This document shows positions 4,366-61,510 of a stretch of DNA of 64,000 nucleotides, piece after piece. The stretch lies in the IMG/VR virus record IMGVR_UViG_3300045988_134731, positions 64,001 through 128,000 of that record. One strand, 5' to 3'. How positions within the stretch are numbered: the stretch's first letter is position 1; every line of letters starts with the position of its first letter. This DNA is from a virus. The notes under the pieces were generated by a model, which saw only the letters and a list, made by a program, of their open reading frames with translations, had not been told where the DNA came from and made no database searches. A program made the translations under genes and the position numbers.

Positions 4366-4564
4366 AATATCTATCCTCCTTGAATTATTAATTATTTTTA
4401 ATTACATATTTATTGTTAAATCATTTTCTTCATATAAACCGTATTTAATCGCTAAATCTTTTATTACAATTAATATTGCCTCAATTAATAACTTGTCTTC
4501 ATTTATTATGTCTAGTTTACTTATTTTATCTGCTTTTGTTTTACTTACACCATTTTTAATAGCG

Positions 4565-5230
4565 TTATTTTTTCAATCTAGTATTTAAATTTACTCCAAA
4601 TCTACTATCTATTTCTTTATATATTTCATCATATACAACCTTATGGTTTATACCAGTTTTATATGTTATCTTATTAACCATATTTTTCACATCTGTTCTC
4701 CAATTATCTTTCGACAATGATATTAAGTCTTGTATATTATCTAATGAATTTTGAAGTCCTTTTATATCTTTTTCCATTTGTTTCTGTTTTAATTCTTGTT
4801 CAACCATACTATCAAATAATATTTTGAATGACTGAAGATTAGGTGATAATTCTGTTGTGTCTATTGTTTGCATTTGTGCTGATTCCATTTCGTTGAAACG
4901 TTTAACATATTTTGCTGTAAATAATATTCCTTTTTCACCAGTCATTTTGTTTGCTAACATTTCACAACCCATTTTAGTACATTCATAACATTTCCTGTTT
5001 TCTCCTTTGGCATCCATATAAGTGCTTTCTATAAAATAATCTAACGGTGGGAGTTCTCCTTTCGTTAAAGTCGGTATTATTCCTACTATTTTAGTTTTGC
5101 CATTTTTATCGACTTGACCTTCTAGCATTTTTAATACATCTCCATGACTTCTCTCCATCATTTTAGCAACCTCTGTGCTCGGTATAGTTTTTATCTTTTC
5201 ATTTTTATTTATATCAATTATATTACTCAT
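4565..5230 (-). CDS. Rha-family phage regulatory protein (start trimmed to ATG at 5230)
   Basis: IPSTEVAKMMERSHGDVLKMLEG matches the Rha N-terminal signature. The GGGAGAG RBS fits MSNIID rather than the ORF-track GTG. Confidence 0.55.
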   Translation of the reverse strand: MSNIIDINKNEKIKTIPSTEVAKMMERSHGDVLKMLEGQVDKNGKTKIVGIIPTLTKGELPPLDYFIESTYMDAKGENRKCYECTKMGCEMLANKMTGEKGILFTAKYVKRFNEMESAQMQTIDTTELSPNLQSFKILFDSMVEQELKQKQMEKDIKGLQNSLDNIQDLISLSKDNWRTDVKNMVNKITYKTGINHKVVYDEIYKEIDSRFGVNLNTRLKK

Positions 5231-5327
5231 ATTTCTCACTCTCCCTTTTATTAATTGTTTTTAATCCCTTACTATTTTTGTCGAGGTATTTCAATAAGTT
5301 TACATTTTAATCACCTTCTTATTATAG

Positions 5328-5359
5328 TATTATCAAAACTGTTATTGAAATTACCTATG
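5328..5359 (-). promoter_or_regulatory. class-2 promoter-like element (CATAGGTAAT-N14-TGATAATA)
   Basis: The 32-nt geometry is identical to the other eight copies. It is followed by an RBS and an ATG-TAA start-stop at 5300-5305. Confidence 0.45.
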
Positions 5360-5438
5360 ATTTAAAATTTATATTTCATATTATCTCCCCTAATAGTAAT
5401 GATTATATCATACCTATATTATTTGTCAATATATTTTA

Positions 5439-6020
5439 TTAATTATTTTCATATGAATTTGATAAAAAATATAATACATCACATATATCAATATCTTTAT
5501 TCTGTTTCATTTTTTTACAATCCTCGTGATAAACGCAATCATTACAAAAATTCACACCTGTATCTTGGTAAATGTAATCTAATATTTTTATAGCTTTTTC
5601 TCCTATATTTCTTTTTACTTTAGCTTGTTTAACTTCTTTATTTATATTTATTTTTATTTTATTAAATCTTAATAAACGTGATTCTTGATAAAAATTAGAA
5701 TAATCGCCTTCCCAAATCATATATAAATTGTTTATGTCTCCATTTTTATATCTTATTTCTATAGAAGTTATATCATCATAATCAACAATACGTTGAAATG
5801 GATTAAAATATTCTTTATATAAAGAGTCCTGTATTTTATCTACTCCTTCTATAATACATGAAAGAGAATAAGAATCATCATTTGCTTTTTCTATTTCTAA
5901 GCTTTTAAAGCTTTCAATCGGTATTCTCATATATTCACAATTTTCAAAAATAAAATCTATAGATTCTATATTTTTATCGCACACTTCATTACTATCTGTA
6001 ATTTTAATACATCTTTCCAT
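5439..6020 (-). CDS. hypothetical protein
   Basis: ORF with a GGAGGG RBS. It ends in NN-stop inside the 15-mer. Confidence 0.6.
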   Translation of the reverse strand: MERCIKITDSNEVCDKNIESIDFIFENCEYMRIPIESFKSLEIEKANDDSYSLSCIIEGVDKIQDSLYKEYFNPFQRIVDYDDITSIEIRYKNGDINNLYMIWEGDYSNFYQESRLLRFNKIKININKEVKQAKVKRNIGEKAIKILDYIYQDTGVNFCNDCVYHEDCKKMKQNKDIDICDVLYFLSNSYENN

Positions 6021-6092
6021 AATATTCCCTCCTAATAAAAATATATTAAAATATCACTAAATTGCAACAAACTCTAAAGTGATATAAATAAA

Positions 6093-58689: not shown

Positions 58690-59809
58690 ATATCTTTCTA
58701 GTGCATGGTTAAAAGTTCACTGGAGTTATGAAAAGTTTATGACTATACTAAATAGAATGTTTGAAGGTGGTAAGGCATTTGCTTGTGCAATTCCTTATTT
58801 AGCTTCTTTAGACCATAAACTTGTATTAAAAGATAAGATTGAAGAAGATAAAGAGGACATGGGCGAATTTGTATTTAATATGGAATATGGAGCTATATGG
58901 CATGGACAAAGTGGTGATTGCTTCTTTAATACATCTGATATGTTAAATGCTAGAGTTTTAAAGAATTGTTATTATCCATTAACAGATGACGACTATAGAA
59001 ATCCGGAAGAGAAGAAAAAGAAATTAAGACAAATGCCTAAAAAGAAAGACGAAATAAGAATAATTTCGGTCGATGTAGCCACAGCAAAAGCTAACAAATC
59101 AAATAAAAATGATAACTCTATTTTTACTTTATGGAGATTACTTCCTAGTGGAAATAATATTATTAGAGAAGTTGTTTATATGGAATCACATAATGGTATG
59201 AAATTTGAAAAACAAGCCACTAGAATTAAGAGATTATATACAGAATTTAAAGCTGATAAAATCATTATAGATGGTGGTGGATTAGGTATAGCGGTAATAC
59301 AAGAGATGGAAAAATCATCTTATGACGAAGGTATCGATGAACATTACGAACCTTTTGGTATTTATGATATGAGTACACAATCAAAAGATTTTGAACCTTT
59401 AAAGAATGGTATAAATTGTATATATGTGATTAAAGGGAATCAAAAAATAAATAATGATTGTGCCGTATATCTTAAAAATGCTTTTGGTAGTAAAAAAATA
59501 AGATTATTAATAGAAGAAAATGAAAAAAGAGGAGACTTTAGTAAAGACTTAAAATATCATCAAGACGCTGAATATCATGCTAATAAAATAGCACCATTTA
59601 TTCAAACATCTAATTTTATATTTGAATCAATAAACTTAGATTATGAAACTATGGGGAATGGTGATATAGTTCTTAAAGAAAAAGGAAGAAATCGTAAGGA
59701 TAGATATTCTTCTATTACTTATGGTAATTATTTAGCAGAATTGATAGAAAGAGATATAAGAAAGAAAAATAGGAATAAGAAAAAGAGACATATTTTCTTA
59801 GCTAATTAA
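58690..59809 (+). CDS. terminase large subunit, exon 3 (nuclease domain)
   Basis: Begins (I)YLSSAWLKVHWSYEKF. The three exons total 1749 nt (583 codons including the stop) and are in frame. Confidence 0.65.
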
Positions 59810-59826
59810 AAAAGGTGGTGAGATAT

Positions 59827-61287
59827 TTGAGCGAAGAGAAAGACAATAAAAAGAATAATTTGAAATTTGCGCAACAAGCTTCTATGGTTGATATAAGTAA
59901 CATAGATAAAATATCTAGCAATAGAAAAAGAAGTAAGGTGGATACTGACACTATAGCTAGTGCTTTAGAAAATCCTTATTCTAATGTTACTACACTACAA
60001 CAGCAAGCCGAGTTAATGAGGGTTATTAATGGTAATTTAAAAGAAATAATAAATTATAAATCGAATTTGTTAACTTACGACCATTATTTAGTTCCATTAG
60101 ATGTTAGTAAGTTTATGACTAAAGGACAAGATAATTTTTTTAAATCTTATAGAAAAGCGTGTTCAGAATTAGAAAAATATAATTTAAAAACTCTTTGTCC
60201 ATGGATTCTAGAAAGTGAATTTAGAAAAGGAGAAATATATCTATATAAACAGGAAACAAGTGATAGCATTACATTCGTTTCTTTGCCAGAAGATTTATGT
60301 AAAGTCACTTATACTGAATCTTTTATGTTAGGTTATAGCATAAAACTTAGTGGTATTAATACTAAACAATTAGGATATTACCCAACAGACATTCAAGATT
60401 TATATGCAAGCTATAAAGCAGGTACATTAAAGAATGATGAAAATTTCGTAGATAACTATTATAAATTACCACTTGAAAACGCAATAGCTTTTCTTCCAGA
60501 AGTAATAGAAAGTAAAGGTATTCCATATTATTCTGGATTGCTTTTAGATTTAAGTAGGATAAAAGATTTAGCAGATGCTAGCATGGAAAATATTGAGGCT
60601 AATAATTTTAAATTAATTCATCAACTATTGCCTACAGATGATGACGGTGATTTAAGTATAGAGCCAGAAACAGCAACGTTTTATCATAGAGCATTAGTTA
60701 AAAATGTCAGAGATGGTATAGGTGTTGTAAGTTCACCTTATCCAATAGATTCCGTTTCATTACAAACTAATAAGGTTTCTGATTATGAGGAAATAAACAA
60801 TTTAACTAAAAATGTATACGATACAGCTGGTATAGATAGTAATTTATTTAATGGTGACAATAGAAGTAGTACACAATCTGTAATTTATGGAACGATTGTT
60901 GACAGTTTAGCACCATTAAATTTATTGGATAGAATTAAAATTTGGTTAAATTATGCTTTTAGTAAAAATTCATCATTAAAGAACTTTCAATTGTGTTTTT
61001 GTGATACAACCAAATTTAATAAAGAGGAAAGAATCCAATCTAGTTGCAATAGATTAACTACATGGGCAAGCAAATTGGAATATTTAGGATTATGTGGATA
61101 TTCTCCGTTAGAAGCGTTGAATATATTACAAATAGAATCAATACTAGATTTTAGCAATTTAATGACTCCATTAGCTAATAGTCATAGTCAAGTTATTGAT
61201 AATGATAAAGGTGGAAGACCAAAGGCTAGTGAACAATCTGGTGACCCAAATAGAGCGCCGGTGGCAGACAATGCAGGAGATTATTAA
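59827..61287 (+). CDS. portal protein (start uncertain: TTG 59827 or GTG 59815)
   Basis: About 490 aa, immediately after terL. The GGTGGTG RBS is 6 nt before the TTG. Assigned by position and size. Confidence 0.55.
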   Translation: MSEEKDNKKNNLKFAQQASMVDISNIDKISSNRKRSKVDTDTIASALENPYSNVTTLQQQAELMRVINGNLKEIINYKSNLLTYDHYLVPLDVSKFMTKGQDNFFKSYRKACSELEKYNLKTLCPWILESEFRKGEIYLYKQETSDSITFVSLPEDLCKVTYTESFMLGYSIKLSGINTKQLGYYPTDIQDLYASYKAGTLKNDENFVDNYYKLPLENAIAFLPEVIESKGIPYYSGLLLDLSRIKDLADASMENIEANNFKLIHQLLPTDDDGDLSIEPETATFYHRALVKNVRDGIGVVSSPYPIDSVSLQTNKVSDYEEINNLTKNVYDTAGIDSNLFNGDNRSSTQSVIYGTIVDSLAPLNLLDRIKIWLNYAFSKNSSLKNFQLCFCDTTKFNKEERIQSSCNRLTTWASKLEYLGLCGYSPLEALNILQIESILDFSNLMTPLANSHSQVIDNDKGGRPKASEQSGDPNRAPVADNAGDY

Positions 61288-61307
61288 AAAATATGGGAGG
61301 AAGATAT

Positions 61308-61484
61308 ATGAATTATAAAAATCCATTATATATATGTTACGATGCTAAACAAAAGAAATTTTTAATAAATGAAGGACTTAAATATTATGTTTGCGGTTTA
61401 AATCCTAATAATCATAAAACATTTTGGGTATTTATGAGGGATGAAGATTTAGATTCAGCATTAAATAAATGGAATAAAAAATAA
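61308..61484 (+). CDS. small protein, paralog of 56165 and 63380 (start trimmed)
   Basis: GGGAGGAAG RBS before MNYKNPLY. NEGLKYYVCGLNPNNHKTFWVFMRDEDLDSALNKWN. Confidence 0.5.
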   Translation: MNYKNPLYICYDAKQKKFLINEGLKYYVCGLNPNNHKTFWVFMRDEDLDSALNKWNKK

Positions 61485-61510
61485 TTAATAAAATATTAGG
61501 AGGAATATAT

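Follow-up and report, generated by a model that had tools for sequence, protein, structure and literature searches.

What is the function of a 15-base motif, AAAATAATTAATAAA, consisting only of A and T, that recurs at gene junctions in a 64-kb stretch of DNA (64,000 nucleotides; hereafter the window) from an uncultured gut phage-plasmid? The window is distantly SPbeta-like, and both this likeness and its MrpR/SroF-family repressor gene were missed by the initial annotation. We found 42 exact copies compared to 0.09 expected from dinucleotide shuffles, 64 copies with at most one mismatch compared to 1.83 expected, and 92 with at most two compared to 18.4 expected, confirming that the motif is real and far beyond chance. 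The limits of conservation are sharp: it covers positions 0-14, preceded by a weak TA at -2/-1, and drops to background outside, and seeding from 7-mers gave the same limits. Of the copies with at most one mismatch, the minus strand carries 55, between 2.8 and 41.6 kb, and the plus strand 9, between 48.3 and 61.5 kb, in agreement with the "about 52" and "about 9" first counted in the two orientations; the coordinates first listed are mostly wrong by 1-2 nt, and the copy at 53341 carries two mismatches. The claim that orientation always follows transcription holds for 64 of 64 copies in the window and, among further loci that in part overlap one another, for all 263 of the exact copies. Gene boundaries are the site of 61 of the 64 copies.

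The initial description of a copy in almost every intergenic junction was overstated, since a copy with at most one mismatch lies within 130 nt upstream of only 46 of 96 called genes, about half (52 of 96 at two mismatches): 39 of 68 in the minus arm, 7 of 21 in the plus arm, and 0 of 7 in the centre. In tight operons, such as that at 5.4-10.2 kb, no such copy was found within 130 nt upstream of genes. The central replication/maintenance block (41600-48250) was correctly called motif-free, with no copy of at most one mismatch found in 41.6-48.25 kb; it contains DnaA boxes (42893-43092), an FtsK-like gene (44440-45570), a Rep3 gene (46193-47149, minus strand), iterons (47187-47333), and the switch in gene strand, skew, and motif orientation.

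The two contexts proposed at the outset, fused to the RBS or directly 5' of a -35 box, were borne out: 24 copies precede a -35 box (P-type), with TTGACA 3-7 or 14-18 nt downstream, 26 precede an SD and start codon (R-type), and 14 have other contexts, of which 5 precede terminator hairpins and 3 lie deep within genes. The SD adjoins the motif in the 26 copies, and the start codon lies 12-18 nt downstream in 23 of them. AAAATAATTAATAAA itself is without an SD and sits either upstream of one or 53-83 nt before the start, ahead of the promoter. It carries TAA stops in two of its three reading frames, and at 30 of the 64 copies the stop codon of the upstream gene falls inside the motif or directly next to it (offsets -11, -7, and -1), in line with the early observation that upstream genes end in it. 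Some copies are extended into a long box by a match to the 9-base ATGATAGTA, scored out of 9.

The following P-type copies are on the minus strand. Exact copies that contain the upstream stop lie at 5435-5449 (TTGACA at 5 nt, spacer 16, TATAAT), 11717-11731 (TTGACT at 4 nt), 19757-19771 (TTGATT at 5 nt), and 22784-22798 (TTGACG at 4 nt), as well as at 11162-11176, which is P-like (TTGACA at 5 nt, weak -10). Other exact copies are found at 10404-10418 (TTGATA at 4 nt; read through by the upstream gene as KIINK), 12158-12172 (TTGACA at 5 nt; overlapped by a one-mismatch tandem partner at 12171-12185), 18969-18983 (TTGACA at 3 nt, TATAAT), 21414-21428 (TTGACT at 16 nt), 23456-23470 (perfect TTGACA-17-TATAAT at 4 nt), 25956-25970 (TTGATA at 4 nt, TATAAT), 37836-37850 (TTGTAA at 6 nt), 38897-38911 (TTGATA at 18 nt), and 41562-41576 (TTGACA at 16 nt), the minus-arm copy closest to the origin. 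Exact long boxes occur at 33040-33054 (9/9; TTGACA at 4 nt), 36833-36847 (7/9; TTGACG at 14 nt), 37206-37220 (8/9; perfect TTGACA-18-TATAAT at 16 nt), and 38234-38248 (7/9; perfect TTGACA-18-TATAAT at 15 nt). One mismatch is present in those at 24754-24768 (TTGACA at 5 nt), 34110-34124 (TTGACA at 4 nt), 35832-35846 (TTGACA at 7 nt), and 39434-39448 (long box 9/9; TTGAAT at 15 nt). The one-mismatch copy at 16209-16223 was classed as P by script but is R-like, with the SD GGTGGTG directly after it.

Among R-type copies on the minus strand, those at 17740-17754 (start at 30 nt) and 18727-18741 (14 nt) are exact and abut the upstream stop, which is contained in the exact copies at 20774-20788 (12 nt) and 28623-28637 (13 nt). 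Further exact copies lie at 24072-24086 (23 nt), 33685-33699 (long box 9/9; 17 nt), 34970-34984 (15 nt), 40498-40512 (18 nt), 41413-41427 (15 nt), and 39366-39380, between an SD and the promoter TTGAAT-17-TATAAT. Single mismatches occur at 4384-4398 (18 nt), 16715-16729 (13 nt; abuts the upstream stop), 20358-20372 (24 nt), 25570-25584 (14 nt), 5247-5261 (between an SD and a bipartite promoter-like element at 5360), 22744-22758 (whose own AATAAT is the -10 for the -35 following the copy at 22784-22798), and 27171-27185 (15 nt), which is paired with the exact copy at 27204-27218, downstream of a bipartite promoter-like element at 27294. On the plus strand, the arm's first copy (48271-48285; 13 nt) and that at 53639-53653 (14 nt) have one mismatch, while exact copies lie at 48614-48628 (13 nt), 50935-50949 (12 nt; an alignment boundary in many relatives), 51695-51709 (ahead of a 392-aa sigma-like gene), 56137-56151 (13 nt), and 61478-61492, which follows a portal-adjacent small gene; at least nine relatives have exact copies at the matching offset downstream of the portal gene.

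The remaining minus-strand copies include exact ones at 2839-2853 (abutting the upstream stop and followed by a hairpin, an SD, and a start codon at 53 nt), 14871-14885 (at the 3' end of gene 14862-15278, in its final codons, which encode KIINK), 30227-30241 (long box 7/9; in a 5'UTR between an SD and a perfect promoter at 30304-30277), and 31339-31353 (followed by a terminator at 31333-31312). One-mismatch copies mark gene ends at 26146-26160 (followed by a terminator hairpin at 26139-26119), 39008-39022 (long box 7/9), and 39764-39778, the latter two ahead of hairpins. The exact 9/9 long box at 39926-39940 begins 13 nt past the -10 of a promoter (39983-39954) and adjoins the SD, which is a classic operator position. 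On the plus strand, an exact copy at 50221-50235 lies 98 nt past a yonV-like gene and precedes a hairpin. Deep within genes are one-mismatch, minus-strand sequences at 8219-8233 (in a ligase gene; probably a chance match or relic) and 21779-21793 (in gene 21428-22060), and the exact plus-strand copy at 54379-54393 (in gene 53917-55044), whose only open frame reads KIINK, as first noted.

A candidate reader of the motif is the 290-aa product of the minus-strand gene at 27328-28200. This protein is homologous to MrpR/YopR/SroF, the master repressor of SPbeta/phi3T; in support, Pfam MrpR_C_cat is found in all of its close homologs, the top seven PDB fold matches point the same way, and its recombinase fold has lost the catalytic residues. 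The gene has its own promoter (28233-28261, minus; TTGTCA-17-TATAAT, with TG), whose -35 lies 5 nt downstream of a degenerate two-mismatch copy (28267-28281), and terminator-like hairpins on the same strand shield it from upstream transcription (28358-28376) and mark its end (27309-27337). Also on this strand, an exact copy (28323-28337) lies between the promoter and the shielding hairpin, and a one-mismatch copy (28414-28428) sits at a gene end ahead of that hairpin. The conserved upstream neighbour is an Xer-like tyrosine recombinase gene (30312-31199, minus) with an intact R..HxxR..H..Y signature, paralleling yopP of SPbeta; the TTGACA of its promoter lies 4 nt downstream of a one-mismatch P-type copy (31270-31284, minus).

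In the recently described system of Bacillus phage SPbeta, MrpR is monomeric when it binds its repeated box, SPBRE, which is AT-rich and asymmetric. We found SPBRE at the two kinds of position that AAAATAATTAATAAA occupies here, and in matching orientation. Comparison of relatives revealed that diverged repressors accompany diverged boxes, and that the motif evolves ~5-fold slower than its flanks. Neither the name "start-associated sequence" nor the parallel with cluster K held up: the SAS of cluster K phages coincides with the RBS, includes AGGAG, is separated from the start codon by 3-7 bp, and is restricted to one genome half (PMC3203893), whereas AAAATAATTAATAAA lacks an SD, lies upstream of the SD or promoter, and is present in both arms. 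The cluster A "stoperators" are closer in architecture.

Among the roles first listed, a recombination junction delimiting gene cassettes has only modest support: breakpoints are enriched 2-fold within junction zones, and the comparison is partly circular. A purely UP-element or translation signal leaves both the 15/15 identity and the lineage-specific variants unexplained. Also bearing on a rival explanation are an ECF-like sigma factor gene (19761-20333, minus), its paralog (20778-21338, minus), and the gene for the 392-aa sigma-like protein (51725-52903, plus; PHROG 5767, LuxR/sigma region-4 HTH).

The factor-binding site, another of those roles, matches the best reading: we suggest, with moderate confidence, that AAAATAATTAATAAA forms an operator or "stoperator"-like array for gene-by-gene silencing, far denser than the SPBRE/MrpR silencing system of SPbeta. 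The phage's own recombinase-shaped, MrpR-like master repressor would dock on the motif and, once bound, would silence genes one by one.

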